Positions 3,457-64,000 of a stretch of 64,000 nucleotides of DNA are shown piece after piece. A program made the position numbers and the translations under genes. How positions within the stretch are numbered: position 1 is the stretch's first letter; the number at the start of each line of letters is the position of its first letter. Location: positions 64,001-128,000 of IMG/VR virus record IMGVR_UViG_3300028887_000077. The stretch is one strand, 5' to 3'. Below the pieces are notes generated by a model, which was given only the letters and a program-made list of their open reading frames with translations, searched no databases and was not told the origin of the DNA. Source of the stretch: a virus. Taxonomy: Duplodnaviria; Caudoviricetes.

Positions 3457-4128
3457 ATGATTACCTTAAAAAGGATTGAAAACGGTGTCCTATACCATGT
3501 CTACAACGAGGACATCGACGCAGATGGCTCGTTTATCGTCCCGAACGGAGTCACGAGTATAGCAGGCTGTGCATTCTGGGGATGTTTTGGTTTAACCTCA
3601 GTCACCATCCCCGATAGCGTTACATATATTGGGAGAGGGGCGTTCGGGCGGTGTTCCGAACTGACTTCTGTCACAATACCGAACAGCGTTACCAGTATCG
3701 GAGAAAGTGCGTTCTATGGCTGCACCAAACTAACATCTGTCATAATCGGCAATGGCGTTACAAGAATCGAAAAATATGCGTTCGACAACTGCATTACTCT
3801 GACATCAAAAAGAGCAAATTACAAGGCATTTGCCCTCACTAAAAGTGGCGAACTGAAATGTCGAAACGAACTTTACACTGTTGGGGAAAAATCAACTGTC
3901 GAAAATAACCTCAGACTCTGTGAAAACGGTATTCACTACTGCACAAATCTTTTCGACATTTTTAACTATTACTCTGGCGTATATGGTAAAGATTTTGTAA
4001 TTGGTATTTGCGAAGTCTCTGACAGGAACATTGGTGGTGGAGACGATTCCAAACGCTGTGCAAGATGGGTAAAACCGAAGAAAATTCTTACGAGAGAAGA
4101 AGTCATTAAAATTATGAATGGGGATTAA
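3457..4128 (+). CDS. BspA-type leucine-rich repeat protein with conserved C-terminal CENGIHYC domain
   Basis: repeats [21 protein letters not shown]; C-terminus [23 protein letters not shown]. Confidence 0.9.
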
Positions 4129-7396: not shown

Positions 7397-7475
7397 GGGC
7401 CCGAAAGGGGTCGACGTGCGTTAAAGCCTACACGGAAGCGTACGGACGTGGGTTCAACTCCCACCGGGTCCACCA
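7397..7475 (+). ncRNA. ssrA: minimal tmRNA: tRNA-like domain only
   Basis: GGGCCCG/CGGGTCC acceptor with G3.U70, unpaired D region ending GGTCGAC, stem GTGCGTT/AGCGTAC, GGAC then T arm GTGGG-TTCAACT-CCCAC, ACCA end. Confidence 0.85.
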
Positions 7476-14711: not shown

Positions 14712-15368
14712 CAAAGGGAGGTAATTGATATCGGTGGCTGTTTATGACGGATGGGATGTTTATGGTCCGTATGTTCGGGCAGACAAAAGACAACATGTTG
14801 TACTCGTATTACACGATGAAAACGGGTCGATTGTAAAAAGGCGGACTATTAGCTATCCAAAATATCTTGTTGAAAAATATTTAGACAGATATTTAAATTC
14901 GGAAGAAACGGTTGACCACATCGATGGTGATTTTTCAAACAACTCGCTTGAAAATCTTCGTGTTGTACTAAGGAGCCTACACGCAAAAAGCCATGCTTCT
15001 AAGAGACAAACGGTGCAGGTACAATGTTTGATTTGTGGAAAAACATTTGTTACCAACAATATCAACAGGGTATGCTGCGGCGATAAGCATTGCGTTGGAA
15101 AGCTCTCTCATGTAAACGGGTATAACCTTGGATATGAGTTTGTTAAAAAATCAAACATTCTTTTACCACCAAACAGGAGCCTGATTGAAGAAATTCAATC
15201 AGTGGAGGGCGCTAATTCGGGGAAGTCGTTGGTCGATAATCCCGAGCAATAAGCAACTTGCTTAGTGTGTAGAGACTTTACACGCCCTACCTAAATCTTA
15301 AAGACAAGGTAAAGAGAAAGTCCGGACCACAAACCAAGTAATTGGGTAGCGAAAACTATAGTGGTAAG
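14712..15368 (+). mobile_element. group I intron with HNH endonuclease ORF
   Basis: exon ends in U, intron ends in G; core elements AATTCGGGGAA, AATCCCGAGC, GTAGAGACTTTAC, AAGAGAAAGTCC. Confidence 0.9.
14725..15252 (+). CDS. intron-encoded HNH homing endonuclease
   Basis: ETVDHIDGDFSNNSLENL HNH motif, C-terminal CLIC/CCGDKHC Zn motif; GGAGG RBS with TTG start. Confidence 0.85.
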   Translation: MISVAVYDGWDVYGPYVRADKRQHVVLVLHDENGSIVKRRTISYPKYLVEKYLDRYLNSEETVDHIDGDFSNNSLENLRVVLRSLHAKSHASKRQTVQVQCLICGKTFVTNNINRVCCGDKHCVGKLSHVNGYNLGYEFVKKSNILLPPNRSLIEEIQSVEGANSGKSLVDNPEQ

Positions 15369-51691: not shown

Positions 51692-52483
51692 TTATTTTAT
51701 ATTAGTTGTGCCGGCTATATTTAACGACTTTTCGGGATTTTCCTTATAGTACTTCTGAATATAATACTTTTCTCGCTCCAAGATATTTTCGTCCTTAGGT
51801 ACGATTTCCAAAACTTCAAACTGATAATCAGTAATCGAGCTGATCGGGAATCTTTCGGTCTTCAGATGCTGCCCCCATCTAAAAATAGGCGCATATACTG
51901 TTTGACCGATGTAAAATTCTCCTGTCGACTTTTTCGAAATCTTATAGATATACCCGGCGCACTCGTTAGAAAACATGTCTCTGGTAACGAAAAACTCGGT
52001 GTCCTGATCAGGGCTTAGCTTTTTTGTTTCTCTCTGTCTGTATTTTTCTTTGCACGCATAGCAACAAAACTTTTTAGTTCTATATTCTTGGATGTTAAAA
52101 AAGTCGTACTTTACTTCGTAGTTGGCGAACTCTATATATTTTCGCAGATACGTCGTAACTTGGGACCCGCAGTTATCACAGACAAATGAAATTTTTTGAA
52201 AGTACCGCTCTGTGTCATAGCAGTGTTCACCAATTATAACACAGTACAAATCGCCAGCTTTGAGATTTTTGCTGAATCGAAAAGAAATATTTTCGCCGTA
52301 TTCGTCACGGATAATTGACTTGAACTGCTCTCGGTCATCACAAACAAGGCAGTCCATAGTCAGTTCCTTGTTGCACATTTTACTTATGCTGTTAAACCCG
52401 AAAACTTCTACCCCCGATTGTAGTGCTTTCTCCTGCTCTTCCGCAGAAGACACCTCGTAGATTCGGTACAAAACTTCAATCAT
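51692..52483 (-). CDS. GIY-YIG nuclease domain protein with Zn ribbon
   Basis: GYIYKI..FYIGQT..RWGQH..FEVLE..EREKYYI..LN; upstream CDNC/CCYAC. Confidence 0.85.
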   Translation of the reverse strand: MIEVLYRIYEVSSAEEQEKALQSGVEVFGFNSISKMCNKELTMDCLVCDDREQFKSIIRDEYGENISFRFSKNLKAGDLYCVIIGEHCYDTERYFQKISFVCDNCGSQVTTYLRKYIEFANYEVKYDFFNIQEYRTKKFCCYACKEKYRQRETKKLSPDQDTEFFVTRDMFSNECAGYIYKISKKSTGEFYIGQTVYAPIFRWGQHLKTERFPISSITDYQFEVLEIVPKDENILEREKYYIQKYYKENPEKSLNIAGTTNIK

Positions 52484-56371: not shown

Positions 56372-57052
56372 TTATCCGTTTGGATTAAAATCTTTGCCGT
56401 CAAAACCACTGTATTCAAACTGAAACGATCCAGATACGGTTTTGCGAATATCGTCTTCGCTCGCCTGTGAGGCGCCAATAATAGACAACAAATCTTTCAT
56501 GCCATCTTTAGACAAATCACAGGGATTACGATTAATCTTAAGGTTGCGCCCACACGGTTTAAATTCAGTACAGACACCTCCGCGATATTCGCAGAGCGGA
56601 ACCAGAAGTCCGTCAAATTCCGGACAGACCTCGATTACCTGCCTGCACATTTCGGCCACGACTTCTCGTGTTTCTTTTGACGCTTGATTGCACAGGCGTT
56701 TATGTGCTATTGTCATAAGCTCTTCGGCGTTCATATACCACATCATGTCAACCGGTGCGTCCTGCGGAGCTTTGCGGCGGTCATAATCAGACTGCCTGTC
56801 GTTTCGCTGTGACTTAACAAATGGTGTCGCATGAACATGTCTGACCAAATGCGTTGACACCCAGTACGGCACGTCCGTGAGTCTAAAACAGAAATTCAGC
56901 GTCCGAATCGGGCTATGGCACGCAGCCAACAGCCGCTTCTTCCACTCGAGATCCGGTGGAGCAACCGGGGTTTTACCGATTGTTACGAGTGTACACTGTT
57001 TTGCTAACATCCAATCCTCATTGGTTGGATATTTAACAATTTCTACATTCAT
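56372..57052 (-). CDS. thyX: ThyX-like FAD-dependent thymidylate synthase
   Basis: HSPIR..F..VSTHLVRH..SQRNDR..RLCNQASKETR..PLCEYRGGVCTE. Confidence 0.8.
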   Translation of the reverse strand: MNVEIVKYPTNEDWMLAKQCTLVTIGKTPVAPPDLEWKKRLLAACHSPIRTLNFCFRLTDVPYWVSTHLVRHVHATPFVKSQRNDRQSDYDRRKAPQDAPVDMMWYMNAEELMTIAHKRLCNQASKETREVVAEMCRQVIEVCPEFDGLLVPLCEYRGGVCTEFKPCGRNLKINRNPCDLSKDGMKDLLSIIGASQASEDDIRKTVSGSFQFEYSGFDGKDFNPNG

Positions 57053-57294: not shown

Positions 57295-60200
57295 TTATGT
57301 TTTCCGGGGCCTATTTTTTATTGCCAATTCTGCACGAATATCTTCGACCATTTTTGCGAAGTCTTCGTCAGATATAATCTCCATTACCGGCGACTCGTAT
57401 GGCAGATAATGTCCTTCGGTTGGTTCATCCTTCTTCTCTGGTGGCTCCAAAGAAACCGGAGATAGAACATAATATCTACCAAGGAATTCAACAGCATTCG
57501 GATCGTCTGCCGTTGACTCCACGGGTGCGATCGGCATCTTTTGAGGAACACACGAAAGTATTTCCTCGTCTAAAAGCACCCACGCAAAGTCCCAGTTAAA
57601 CTTCGTGTATGATTGTGAAAGCGCATATATGTACGTGAGTCCGTCAAGAGTGTTGAGTTTAAGGTCCGCGTATTGTGCACGTATTTTTTCCGTCATAGAG
57701 TCGATCGCAGCGAACCTGAAGTCTTTATACTCATCAGGATCAGCCCCGTCGAACACGCGAGAAACCGTTTGTAGATTTTTGTTCGAACTGAATGTTCGGT
57801 ATATATCTCTCATCTTATGCAGCACATCCGGATCGATTTTAAACGAATCAAGATCGTGGTGTGGAAGCATAGATATATTATGCTTATGGTAGTTGATGTC
57901 AAAATCGACAGATTCAAATTCTTTGCATATTAGATTCATCGTACAATCGCTATTAATTACCGGTGAGAACCGCCTGTATCTTCTGATAAAAGTCCGTTCG
58001 AGTTCTGTTTTCTGCTCTTTCATTAAGAGCTTTTTAATTGGCATGCGGAACATGCACTTTGATGTCTCATTATACTTAGACTCATAACGCTTATACTTGG
58101 CATTAAGTTCTTGGTACAAGTACCGGAAGAAATATGGCTTCTTCGCTAGAACTAATGAGTTATGATAATATTTCGCTTGTCGTTCTGCGTCTGTATCGTC
58201 AGGAAGAATTTTTTGGATCTTCAACCACTCGTCTTTTGGCGGGCCCTTTGCGTCGACACCCTTGATTCGGTCGATCTCTTGCCCGTTAATTTCTCTCAGG
58301 AGCTTTTTACGCAACAGTAATTCGTTGTCCTGCGGGGAGTCCTGTGCGAAGAGAGGGCGCATCGCCTCTATAATTGTCGAATAGTTAGAATATGTGCCGA
58401 CCTTCGTACCAAACCCTCTGATGTCCGTTTCGACAAAGTTTCTGTGGCAAATTCGCTGAGATGGGACCGCTTCTTTGTCATATGAAATCGGATTCGTTAC
58501 GTCCTTCATCGAGCCCTTTAATAAAACCTCATTGTCAGAGCTCATAACTAAATCGCCATCAACCAAAACACCCTCGGTTTCCCGATATTTATTAGGGGAG
58601 TAGACTATCTCTTCGGCTTACACCCTTTTAACAAATGTAAGTCGCTCGGCACTTTGGAAATACGAGTTTCACGCATTCCCTACTCTACTCGCTTCTTTTG
58701 CGTTGTGTTTCTCAACGCATATGCTTTCGATAGTCGTTACACCTTCTCAATTAAGAGCTTGGCACGGTATTATCATTTTACAAATTTCACCGTTAGCCGA
58801 ACCGTTGGTTCGACACCCTGCTTTTGCAGGTTCACCGAGTTTACTACCGGTCGTCGCCGACCGGCGGACCCTGATCACTAGTCACTGTCTGAATGTCTTA
58901 ATGTACTCAGATCATAAATCGAGTAAATAATGCCGCTGTGTATGTGGGAGTACCACTTTCGTGCTTCGTCGCTTGAATAGAGCGTACAGTGATTCACCTC
59001 GTGCTTATCCAGCAGCGGCGAACGACAAAGCACAATCTCGTCTCCCGGACTTTTCCTCCGTTGCCAGAACTCCGAATAAATATGCTCACCGGGGATTTCT
59101 CCGTCCACCGGAAGCCGTAACGCAGCCCGGCACTGTGCGATCGGGTCAGAGATCATGAACGAGTAATTCCCTCTCACCCATATCTTACCGATTTTCGTTC
59201 GGTTAATAGTCTCTACAATATTTCGATATATTTTTTTCTGGACATATGCGTCCTTTAAGAAGTCTGGGTCTTTTACAACCGCCTTCATAGCGAGGTTTTG
59301 TGCTCGCACAAACACATCGTTGTATGTGACCAGGCGGTCTGAGGAAAACCCTCCGAGAGAATAAAGCAACGCATACACGTCATCGCCAGAACATATCTTA
59401 TTGACCCAGTCGATTGTTGGGGCAACAAGTCGCTTAATATCATCCTTATTAATATTAAGCACTTGGATGATCTGGTAGTTTGCGAGAACATACTCGTCGT
59501 CTATGGCCCGATTATATCTAGAAACACCCCAGCCGATGTTGTACTTGGTGGTGTATCTCAAATAGTCCTCATAAGACGAATAGTACTTGTACTGCTTAAA
59601 CTGACTTTCTGAAAGCAGAACGTCGATCTCGTCCACGTTGTGTGGGTTTCCCCATCGGTCGTATATGATTGATATGCCGTGCTCTTTGGCGTATGCACGA
59701 AAATCAAACGGTACCAGATTACCTTTTGTCCATATTGTTCGGACGACAAAGCTTGACGGGACATATTTAAGAGACATGTTTTCAGACCATCTCTTGGCCA
59801 TATCCGGCGAAATAAGCCCCTGCCCGTCAAAGCTGTTCATCTTAATATCTACGACGCGCTCTTCTACAAGCTTTTTCGTCTTCGTTGTTCCGTCTGCAAG
59901 CACAACATCTTTGTTGACGATCCAGTCGAGCTTCTGATCCTTTAGCGTAGTAAATGCATCCGGGATAACACAAACCCTTGGTGTATCAACCCACATAACA
60001 GAGGATGTCGCCAGCGAAAAATACGCAGAAAGCTTCGCTATGTTAATTTCCTTAACGCGGTCCGTAAGCCCACACATCAATCGCTTTTGAAGCTCTTGAT
60101 AGATCTCTGCGTTACAGAAAATAACGCAATTTCTTCGTATATTCCCGGCCGAGGCGCTAAATCTAACATACCGAACACCGTTTAAGTAAAACCCGTTCTT

Positions 60201-60554
60201 TGCCAGTCTTCTGTAGTCGGATTTTTTAAACACTTCAACGATCGCAAAGTCTTTTACATAGAGCGTCTTTGTCAAAAAGCTCCAATAAACCTTTGCGTTT
60301 TCGTTGTCCCCATCTCGTTTTGCTCTTCGTAAATTTTGCCTGATCTTTTGAACAAGAGCGAAGATTTCTTTCGGTGATCGATTGTCGCCTCTGATTTTTC
60401 GGGCTTGTGCAAATGCGATGTTGTCGCCGCACGAAACAATGCTGTTTGTTGGCGCCGCTTTCTGCAGCCCGAAACCCTGAATGTTTAAGTTGTTCTGACA
60501 GATGAAAGTAGAAGACAGTTTAACAATCTGGTATAAAACCTGTTCTTGTATCAC
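57295..60554 (-). CDS. YonO-like (RdRP-fold, double-psi barrel) single-subunit RNA polymerase; exons 60554..58880 and 58562..57295, 980 aa after splicing
   Basis: FDGQGLIS, VVR..KG, RSP and spliced DSDFDGD motifs; EIDRIKG..KPYFFRYLY. Confidence 0.85.
58563..58879 (-). mobile_element. group I intron, 317 nt, no ORF
   Basis: exon GACU pairs with intron GGUC (U.G), terminal G, core GCTAACGGTGAA, AATACCGTGC, GTGTAACGACTA, GAAGAGATAGTCT. Confidence 0.9.
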
Positions 60555-60569
60555 CTTATAGTCTTCTCC

Positions 60570-61130
60570 TTAGTTGCTGTGAAAAAGTATTTCCTCTCCC
60601 ATTGGAGACAAAAGAAATTTAGTGATCGTAGCAACATCCGTCTCCAACACGGACAAATTAAATTCGTTGTTAATAGTAAAATCTGCTTTATAATCGTTCA
60701 TATCGACCTCAGACGCATGCTTCTTTTGTTCCTCTGTTAATCCGTTGTCGAAATTCGGCCGGACCACACGACAAACCGTGTATGTAAAATCCTTAAATCC
60801 GTTAGCCTCATTTTTATATCGACAATCTGGTATTAACATATAGTCTGCGTCAGAACCAAGAGCGATCTCACGACAGATATTTACCCAGCACATCGGATTG
60901 TTTTTTCGATAAGCCGTTCCTACATTTTGAAGAATGGTTCTTCCAACAGGTCCCTTATCGCCTACAATCCATCCGTAAGATGTGCTGCATAGCATTTTTA
61001 GTGGATCTGCAAAATGGTAAATAATAACGCTTTTCCCGGCCTCTTCGAGAAACTTTTTCATAAACGAAGCGGTCGTGTCTTTTCCATGGCGAGCAGAGCC
61101 AGATAATAAAATGATTTTAGTATTTTTCAT
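60570..61130 (-). CDS. deoxynucleoside monophosphate kinase-like P-loop protein
   Basis: LSGSARHGKDT, HFADPLK, RTILQNVGT, IPDCRYKNE, HASE. Confidence 0.85.
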   Translation of the reverse strand: MKNTKIILLSGSARHGKDTTASFMKKFLEEAGKSVIIYHFADPLKMLCSTSYGWIVGDKGPVGRTILQNVGTAYRKNNPMCWVNICREIALGSDADYMLIPDCRYKNEANGFKDFTYTVCRVVRPNFDNGLTEEQKKHASEVDMNDYKADFTINNEFNLSVLETDVATITKFLLSPMGEEILFHSN

Positions 61131-61743
61131 ATGTGTCAACCCGCATTAGCTCTTTTTCCACAAGTGCGAACTCTAAAATTCTAATGATTTCTTTCCAGGT
61201 GTCAACAATATATAAATTATCCAAAACGGCGGTCTGTTTGTTCCACTGTCTATCTATTCCGCGTTTATATAAAATCTTACAGTTCGCGTTCGTAGTTGCA
61301 AGTGCGTCAAACCGGTCGTCGATTTGGATTCCGTTTGTCATATTAATATGTGATTTGTCGTAACAATTTACTTCTTTTGATAAAGCACATGGCAGGAAGG
61401 TTGCTTTTGAGAAATGCTTTTTTAAGAACGCTTCCTTCCTTTTTAAATTAAGCGGTATGCCCTTCGAGACAAAAACAAAGTTGAAATGCCGTTTGTGATC
61501 GTGATAAAAACGCTTAAAGTCCGGATCAATCTGAACAATATCCCAAAACCTCTCCGATGCGAAGATTTCGTTTACGTTATCGAAATTGGCCCCGGAATAG
61601 ATCGACCGGTATCCCCAGTCGGTAACGTCCTTTACGGTTTTATTTGTTCCGTATTTTTCGTTCATGATTTGAACGACGGCTTCGGACGAATGAAGCACTG
61701 TGTCGTCGACGTCTAAAAATAATGTAATTTTTTCTTTGCCCAT
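61117..61743 (-). CDS. HAD-family 5'(3')-deoxyribonucleotidase-like protein
   Basis: LFLDVDDTV, DKS, QIDD, WN motifs. Confidence 0.8.
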   Translation of the reverse strand: MGKEKITLFLDVDDTVLHSSEAVVQIMNEKYGTNKTVKDVTDWGYRSIYSGANFDNVNEIFASERFWDIVQIDPDFKRFYHDHKRHFNFVFVSKGIPLNLKRKEAFLKKHFSKATFLPCALSKEVNCYDKSHINMTNGIQIDDRFDALATTNANCKILYKRGIDRQWNKQTAVLDNLYIVDTWKEIIRILEFALVEKELMRVDTYEKY

Positions 61744-63847: not shown

Positions 63848-63923
63848 GCTTCTTTAGCTCAGTTGGCAGAGCAACGGTCTGTTAAACCGTGGGTCGTAGG
63901 TCCGAGCCCTACAGGAAGCGCCA
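63848..63923 (+). tRNA. tRNA-Asn(GTT)
   Basis: ACGGT-CT-GTT-AA-ACCGT, G73, CCA; T loop reads TCCGA. Confidence 0.9.
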
Positions 63924-64000
63924 GATAGAACCAGACAAGCCTCCTAACAATGCTCAAATCGTCTGGTCTTTCACCAATTACCCCAAAGGCCAAGGGGTCG

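Follow-up and report, generated by a model that had tools for sequence, protein, structure and literature searches.

A group I intron lies within the codons for the catalytic DFDGD motif of a YonO-like phage RNA polymerase

Group I introns are familiar residents of the conserved codons of essential phage enzymes. Phage IA2-like introns and their nucleases have been described (PMC11878797), as have introns and an intein in SPbeta bnrdE and bnrdF and a mobile intron between gp273 and gp274 of the 201phi2-1 RNA polymerase (PMC8270828, PMC2919709). In phage PhiPA3, the putative group I intron of gp210 interrupts the gene for a β-like subunit of the virion RNA polymerase directly after conserved aspartates, and in a co-infecting phage the homologous site without an intron is cut by the gp210 HNH endonuclease, harming this rival (PMC11620839, Birkholz et al. 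2024). The single-chain polymerase YonO synthesizes RNA on DNA templates, transcribes the late operon of SPbeta and requires its aspartate triad, mutation of which abolished activity (PMC5467207); DxDGD is the universal Mg-binding motif of the β′ barrel (PMC7598289). Here we analyse a 64,000-nt stretch of DNA (the window; positions 64,001 to 128,000 of IMG/VR record IMGVR_UViG_3300028887_000077), which is part of a complete gut phage genome of 150,027 bp with terminal repeats. The window very probably contains a selfish, homing-type group I intron of 317 nt, without an endonuclease of its own, in the DFDGD codons of a YonO-like polymerase gene.

Two open reading frames (ORFs) on the minus strand meet the insert from either side (Table 1). 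The upstream ORF (58878..60554, 558 aa) closes with LRHSDSD followed by TAG, and the downstream ORF (57295..58566, 423 aa) opens with L-V-D-G-D-L-V-M-S. Exon 1 starts with GTG at 60554 and its last base, U 58880, is the first base of the Phe codon in DFDGD; exon 2 opens with UU GAU GGC GAU, which supplies the remainder of F and then D-G-D, and stops with TAA at 57297-57295. Deleting 58563..58879 in a script joined 1675 and 1268 nt into 2943 nt, or 980 codons with a single, terminal stop, and the predicted junction reads ..YSIYDLSTLRHSDSD-FDGD-LVMSSDNE.., with the Phe codon split as U/UU. DFDGD arises only once the exons are joined. The boundary TAG consists of the last exon base and the first two intron bases, and therefore a full-length enzyme would require splicing. 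PHROG profile 8308 leaves off at position 550 with exon 1 and resumes at position 551 with exon 2; this continuity, together with a match to the group I intron family RF00028 and relatives' DNA that is exactly 317 nt shorter, indicates that the frames and RNA elements are more than a chance arrangement. An intein was also considered and was ruled out by the in-frame stops in the insert, including the boundary TAG, and by the RNA core. The initial annotation had described both frames, the 980-codon fusion with its DFDGD motif, the position of the intron within the DxDGD codons and the elements P1, P10, P/Q/R/S and terminal G, and every one of these proposals was reproduced at exactly the junctions given, with the ribozyme core and the shorter alleles described below in agreement.

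Table 1. Features of the polymerase locus and positions of insertions in related loci (window coordinates; ranges in descending order are written 5' to 3' on the minus strand)
Feature	Position or number of loci	Strand	Basis and details
Exon 1 of YonO-like RNA polymerase gene	58880..60554	minus	ORF and translation; PF05183; phrog_8308 positions 75-550; yonO tblastn
Group I intron, 317 nt, without endonuclease ORF	58563..58879	minus	RF00028; covariation; minimum free energy; length absent from relatives' DNA
Exon 2	57295..58562	minus	translation; phrog_8308 positions 551-725; spliced-protein blastp spanning the junction
Internal guide sequence	58867..58875	minus	GGUC 58870-58867 (P1) and AUCAG 58875-58871 (P10); coordinates checked
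P2 hairpin, GCGA loop	58847..58864	minus	100% paired; 2 of 7 pairs changed on both sides
P3 5' strand, CUCGGU	58834..58839	minus	partner GCCGAG 58650-58645; compensatory G-C to A-U in 6 relatives
Two extra hairpins between P3 and P4	58830-58817 and 58814-58796	minus	each 100% paired, 2 pairs changed on both sides
P4, ACGGUG 58793-58788 / UACCGU 58769-58764 (P/Q elements), enclosing short P5	58764..58793	minus	alignment with L005-L007; pair counts
P7, GACUAUC 58735-58729 / GAUAGUC 58609-58603 (R/S elements)	58603..58735	minus	covariation; R/S consensus in Rfam alignment
Inside P7: P7.1, P7.2, P3 3' strand, P8	58719-58699, 58680-58656, 58650-58645, 58642-58616	minus	covariation
3' module: P7 3' strand, P9 with UCGG-GAAA-CCGA hairpin, terminal G 58563	58563..58621	minus	megablast
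Insertion before first Asp codon	2 loci		L075, L079 (5' junction only placed)
Insertion after first Asp codon	3 loci		L069, L070, L086
Insertion one base later (the window's site)	15 loci		L011, L013-L016, L018, L022-L024, L027, L029, L031, L032, L062, L087
Insertion after second Asp codon	7 loci		L012, L019, L020, L026 (runs off contig), L071, L074, L076

The RNA pairings expected of a group I intron are present at both junctions. P1 joins exon bases GACU (58883-58880) to GGUC of the internal guide, with a U.G pair at the 5' splice site, and does not vary among the 7 related introns; P10 joins AUCAG to UUGAU (58562-58558) of exon 2, a helix of 5 bp in the window intron and of 3 bp in each of the other 6; and the final intron base, 58563, is the expected G (omega G). 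A permissive scan of 58450-59000 (551 nt) matched RF00028 at 27.6 bits (E 4.6e-5) in an alignment that covers the R/S consensus with high posterior probability, and on folding alone the intron reaches -101 kcal/mol, with a minimum free energy (MFE) z-score of -4.0.

Covariation was assessed in the window intron and six introns from related IMG/VR phages, each ORF-less and 313-314 nt long, against a hand-written structure of 81 pairs in 14 helices (P1, P10, P2-P4, P6-P9, P7.1/P7.2 and the two extra hairpins, with P7 as a pseudoknot). Across the seven introns, 95.9% of cells are paired and 22 of the 81 pairs have changed on both sides, and none of 500 shuffles reached any of the observed covariation measures. 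When partners were slid by 1-3 columns, pairing was 32-42% with at most 2 two-sided changes, a comparison biased towards the structure, which was derived from the very sequences tested. The core helices P3, P4, P6, P7 and P8 are 81-100% paired, with at least one two-sided change in each of P3, P6, P7 and P8 and none in P4. Several alternative pairings were tried and rejected. Relatives L022-L029 are unable to form P3 as drawn from Rfam (GUUCGGC/GCCGAGC), whereas CUCRG/CYGAG covaries; the MFE pairing of CUCGG with the 3'-terminal CCGAG fails in that the terminal copy stays unchanged when the 5' strand changes; and a best-helix scan of the window and L018-L029 offered a 5-bp P1 inside P2, to which we prefer the 4-bp GACU/GGUC helix conserved across the set.

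The interrupted gene product is, by sequence comparison and by the model of a homologue, a YonO-like single-chain two-barrel RNA polymerase. Exon 1 matches the Pfam family RdRP (PF05183) at 27.8 bits against a cut-off of 23.8, and tblastn retrieved 40 phage records, among them SPbeta yonO at 2e-18. The spliced protein, assembled in a script, aligned by blastp to YonO across the junction (6e-41, 27% identity, residues 83-623) and end to end to the 924-aa protein UAW07825 of Bacillus phage BUCT082 (3.9e-115). A family profile matched YonO at 2.1e-104, placing sDfDgD on its D-N-D-G-D, and a profile search of the Protein Data Bank found plant RDR2-type enzymes and QDE-1 (4e-5 to 3e-3). We also modelled a homologue without the intron, P0003 (987 aa; 48% identity with exon 1), from 59 aligned sequences; the model (pLDDT 87.3, pTM 0.83) matched QDE-1 (E 1.9e-16, TM 0.45-0.52) and RDR2 in Foldseek, followed by the RNA polymerase of crAss-like phage phi14:2 and P74 gp62, which gives this homologue a double-psi beta-barrel polymerase fold. 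Residues D550, D552, G553, D554, R502, P504, K270 and D236 (P0003 numbering) are invariant in 59 full-length relatives; for two-barrel polymerases, eight universal residues have been named (PMC2919709). The profile and structural comparisons with YonO and QDE-1 that the initial annotation had proposed thus bear out its assignment of the host gene, the structure being that of P0003.

Alleles without the intron exist in closely related phages. When contigs of four DNA runs containing relatives were compared with the window, one contig in each of three runs, from three studies, joined 58560 to 58903 through 25 letters of its own and was net 317 nt shorter; in the fourth run, a loose end starts with the same letters as the joined form. 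By hand translation, the joined allele encodes T-L-R-H-S-D-S-D-F-D-G-D, the predicted spliced product, and the phages carrying it have about 95-97% exon identity to the window. The survey of homologues for intron-minus alleles thus succeeded both in these three of four runs and in IMG/VR, where 53 of 80 related loci are uninterrupted. Because near-identical phages and these 53 loci do without it, the intron is dispensable. Intron-less, ORF-less and ORF-bearing states all occur among the contigs of one metagenome.

Of the 25 junction-flank letters, 9 differ from the window, and a hand translation shows all of these changes to be synonymous; in other parts of this 72.9-kb contig, 65 of 1266 and 48 of 1652 letters differ. 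The final 30 bases of exon 1 in the window are identical at 28 of 30 positions to those of the distant, intron-bearing L014 and L015, and sixty bases further upstream at only 14-16 of 30. This pattern resembles a tract of co-conversion or an endonuclease site that has been recoded, and the conserved peptide may account for part of it.

A full HMMER search with exon 1 returned 1288 proteins at E <= 1e-3. Of the best 150, 144 representatives cover the motif: 35 stop within it, 108 run through and 1 is cut later. The script had counted 33 stops, and P0134 and P0136, which read a few residues beyond the first residues of the motif, were added. The counts refer to cluster representatives, and because fragments form clusters separate from those of full-length proteins they give no frequency. 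Of the 108 run-through representatives, 25 have F, Y, L or M in place of the Gly of DxDGD (giving, for example, DFDFD and DFDYD) and 8 more have S or A. At the DNA level, an alignment of 10 sequences led to 197 confirmed IMG/VR loci, the best 80 of which were examined; five of these repeat contigs already in the collection, and many come from one metagenome. In 27 of the 80 the motif is interrupted (an automatic tally of 59 contiguous, 17 split and 4 unclear was revised to 53 and 27 after inspection of high-scoring segment pairs). Automatic enumeration of splice junctions gave many false solutions, and junctions were retained only if they rebuilt the motif in register with the protein alignment.

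Insertions in the motif occupy four positions within 9 nt (Table 1). A U precedes every one of the 29 junctions examined, 26 of the 29 can form a U.G-closed helix of 4 bp or more, and insertions with both ends placed measure 255 to 1174 nt. In the phage collection, only 5 records allowed the C-terminal half to be located: BUCT082 and PMBT24, which are uninterrupted, and MT835481 and two c-st records, which are interrupted, MT835481 following the second Asp codon. The insertion in the finished genome of Clostridium phage c-st is 317 nt long and follows D-M-D (L093:2284-2600, RF00028 25.4 bits). The c-st record (AP008983.1, L093 613-4546) lists three coding sequences (CDS), CST179 ('N-ter only'), CST178 ('hypothetical') and CST177 ('C-ter only'); the insertion separates CST179 from CST178, and CST178 and CST177 overlap at 3716-3722. 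The more distantly related loci L071, L074, L075, L076, L079, L086 and possibly L085 have further insertions in the polymerase gene at KIGxITN and IDxxKG, invariant motifs at spliced residues of about 605 and 650, and these share the same 3' module ending. Locus L071 has three insertions in a single polymerase gene.

Introns in related loci carry endonuclease ORFs. Those of L001 and L071 match HNH_3 and NUMOD4, and that of L012 matches LAGLIDADG_3. Five others (L013, L015, L031, L032 and L069) match only NUMOD3 (19.7-25.5 bits against a cut-off of 20.4); these have no Pfam GIY-YIG match, and we call them GIY-YIG-like from motifs recognized by eye. The ORF in L086 matched no family in the domain scan. 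The window intron is the ORF-less counterpart of the intron in L005-L007, whose ORF occupies the P5 loop, and in L011 and L013-L015 an endonuclease ORF likewise lies within the P5 loop enclosed by P4; the ORF that the closest relatives of the window intron have in this loop is GIY-YIG-like. Homing-endonuclease ORFs in relatives mark the intron as a selfish element, and because the introns of relatives have unrelated 5' halves, four sites and endonuclease ORFs, repeated invasion accounts for them better than a conserved regulator would. Elsewhere in the window, a 263-aa ORF (51692-52483, minus) with a C-terminal GIY-YIG catalytic domain may be a free-standing homing endonuclease. A 370-aa ORF that by eye resembles an IS605-type TnpB lies about 60 nt downstream of the polymerase gene in L005, L006 and L008 and has no counterpart in the window.

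The 3' end of the intron is shared far more widely than the rest. In a megablast search of 50,697 phage records, 198 matched solely window positions 58566-58621, with 88-100% identity over 44-52 nt among the matches listed, and no record covered at least 80% of the query. In the Staphylococcus phage phiSA_BS1, the match sits between two 'DNA polymerase I' CDS pieces, past an intervening ORF, a position that makes it the 3' end of an intervening sequence in the DNA polymerase I gene. The 3' module is single-copy in the window's own 150-kb genome, and conserved intron pieces of 39-46 nt are present in many unrelated contigs from the same kind of sample.

These observations are consistent with a primary transcript in which guanosine would attack between GACU and A to start self-splicing, and ligation of the exons after the terminal G would restore a single frame of 980 codons, translation of an unspliced message being expected to end at the boundary TAG. 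The ORF-less window intron could presumably move only with an endonuclease supplied in trans, and its presence would break the DNA site expected as the target of such enzymes. Several points weigh against this picture of a selfish, self-splicing intron. Splicing is deduced from DNA, no RNA run having been found to contain the stretch. The match to RF00028, an operational rather than a defining test of a group I intron, lies below the gathering score of 50, and at Rfam gathering thresholds no intron is called in the window; the scores of relatives are likewise below threshold (21.3 bits for L008 and 25.4 bits for c-st). P1 has only 4 bp. In group I introns a short joining strand normally connects P3 to P4, an interval occupied here by two hairpins, and the P3 of the Rfam alignment is not the one that covaries. 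The fold evidence belongs to P0003 rather than to the window's spliced protein. Regarding mobility, the window copy has no endonuclease ORF from which it could be demonstrated, and identity to the nearest sampled relatives is 65-81% for the intron against 61-69% for the exons, with no sign of recent transfer. The data fit intron gain and intron loss alike.

Three other explanations of the insert were weighed. The initial annotation had raised the possibility of a timing switch, in which splicing efficiency gates the phage RNA polymerase and hence times late transcription. The boundary TAG, which leaves no full-length enzyme without splicing, the role of YonO in SPbeta (PMC5467207) and the placement of the polymerase gene among nucleotide-metabolism genes, where an early or middle gene might lie, can be cited in its favour. 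Absence of the intron from phages with about 95-97% exon identity and from 53 of 80 related loci, the invasion pattern of unrelated 5' halves, four sites and endonuclease ORFs, and the fact that no condition-sensing element was seen make such a role improbable; nothing speaks for a switch beyond the dependence on splicing, and the intron-less relatives show that the intron can be spared. The accompanying claim that late transcription depends absolutely on splicing holds for the first step, as the full-length enzyme would need it, whereas late-gene transcription by the window's enzyme is only an extrapolation from SPbeta YonO.

At a similarly low level, and marginally lower still, we rate a gene that is truly split or dead, with an insert that no longer splices and halves that are made separately or an enzyme that is lost. 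Such a reading could draw on the second ORF, which opens with TTG at 58566 and has GAGGG a few bases upstream, and on splicing being predicted here from sequence. The cut lies, however, within the three-aspartate metal site, GAGGG belongs to the 3' module common to 198 phage records, compensatory changes maintain the pairing of the ribozyme core, and the 980 codons of the two exons are intact and match uninterrupted homologues along their whole length. Finally, an assembly artefact or chimeric contig might have inserted an intron-like piece, given that the conserved 39-46-nt pieces found in many unrelated contigs could mislead assemblers. One run contains all sampled words of the stretch, although it is possibly the source of this DNA; the same architecture and junction appear in independent IMG/VR contigs of other samples (L087, L018 and L032), and c-st has such an insertion in a finished genome. 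This recurrence in independent contigs and in a finished genome leaves the artefact a negligible chance, and we treat it as excluded.

Building on the interpretation of the insert as a selfish intron, we tentatively raise a broader one, which we consider possible but doubtful: the nine bases around the first two Asp codons may be a contested site among co-occurring gut phages, occupied at four positions by introns with three kinds of endonuclease. If so, the endonucleases would cut the intron-less catalytic-site DNA of rivals during co-infection, as PhiPA3 gp210 does, and the ORF-less window intron and the 23 recoded bases upstream of it would act mainly as immunity to those endonucleases.

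The polymerase gene is flanked on the same strand by a ThyX-like ORF, a dNMP kinase and an NT5C-like nucleotidase (56372-57052, 60570-61139 and 61117-61743, all minus), and it therefore lies in a nucleotide-metabolism block rather than among structural genes. Other RNA features occur elsewhere in the window. A second match to RF00028 at 15153-15348 (plus strand; 39.1 bits, E 5e-8 locally) is overlapped by an HNH_3 ORF (14725-15252, plus) that runs into it, and the 3' module of the polymerase intron is absent from this region (14725-15348, plus). At 7397-7475 (plus), 79 nt match the tmRNA model (62.7 bits) and retain only its tRNA-like ends, and an abiF RNA match (49.9 bits) at 63848-63967 (plus) directly follows a tRNA gene.

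We regard the multi-site, multi-endonuclease hot spot and its consequences for annotation as the most useful aspects of these results. The expectation in the initial annotation that gene callers would split the enzyme into fragments agrees with the 35 of 144 representatives that stop in the motif and with the separate PHROGs families for each half, phrog_25339 being matched by exon 1 only and phrog_35857 by exon 2 only. YonO-like polymerases are systematically under-called; in the 2005 record of c-st the pieces are named 'YonO-homolog (N-ter only)' and '(C-ter only)'. With four insertion points in 9 nt and three kinds of endonuclease ORF, the hot spot is a compact natural model of how introns home, how their sites shift and how endonucleases are exchanged. 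Structural work on the phage IA-type class can likewise draw on the short, ORF-less ribozyme and its covarying relatives as natural variants, including the odd hairpins between P3 and P4.

The window intron has an IA-type periphery with P7.1 and P7.2, and phiSA_BS1 is a Twortvirinae phage. Like the Twort-like/K-like and SPO1-like phage introns of Firmicutes, such as that of phiSA_BS1, the window intron has a nearly identical 3' module of about 45 nt with a P9 GAAA loop, has the extra helices P7.1 and P7.2 between P7 and the 3' strand of P3, and is optional and placed in conserved codons of an essential enzyme. Those introns often carry HNH or GIY-YIG ORFs, whereas the window copy has none, and it further departs from them in its YonO-like polymerase host gene, in a 5' half unrelated at the megablast level and in the two hairpins between P3 and P4. 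A search that left out most subscription journals turned up no published account of an intron within a yonO-like gene, and supplements to the YonO papers may list split homologues. In bnrdE/bnrdF and gp273/gp274 of 201phi2-1, as at this locus, mobile intervening sequences lie in genes for conserved enzymes of large phages; the host genes there are different, and those reports mention none at the DxDGD site of a single-chain enzyme. Compared with SPbeta YonO (Forrest et al. 2017, PMC5467207), the window protein is a homologous single-chain two-barrel RNA polymerase with an aligned aspartate triad; yonO is uninterrupted and encodes 839 aa, whereas the predicted window protein has 980 aa. The PhiPA3 polymerase differs in being multisubunit and from a jumbo Pseudomonas phage, with its intron, unlike that of the window, bearing an endonuclease and lying at a site in the β-like subunit rather than in the DxDGD loop, but the two introns have in common the group I type (putative for PhiPA3), a phage RNA polymerase gene as host and a position at conserved aspartates.

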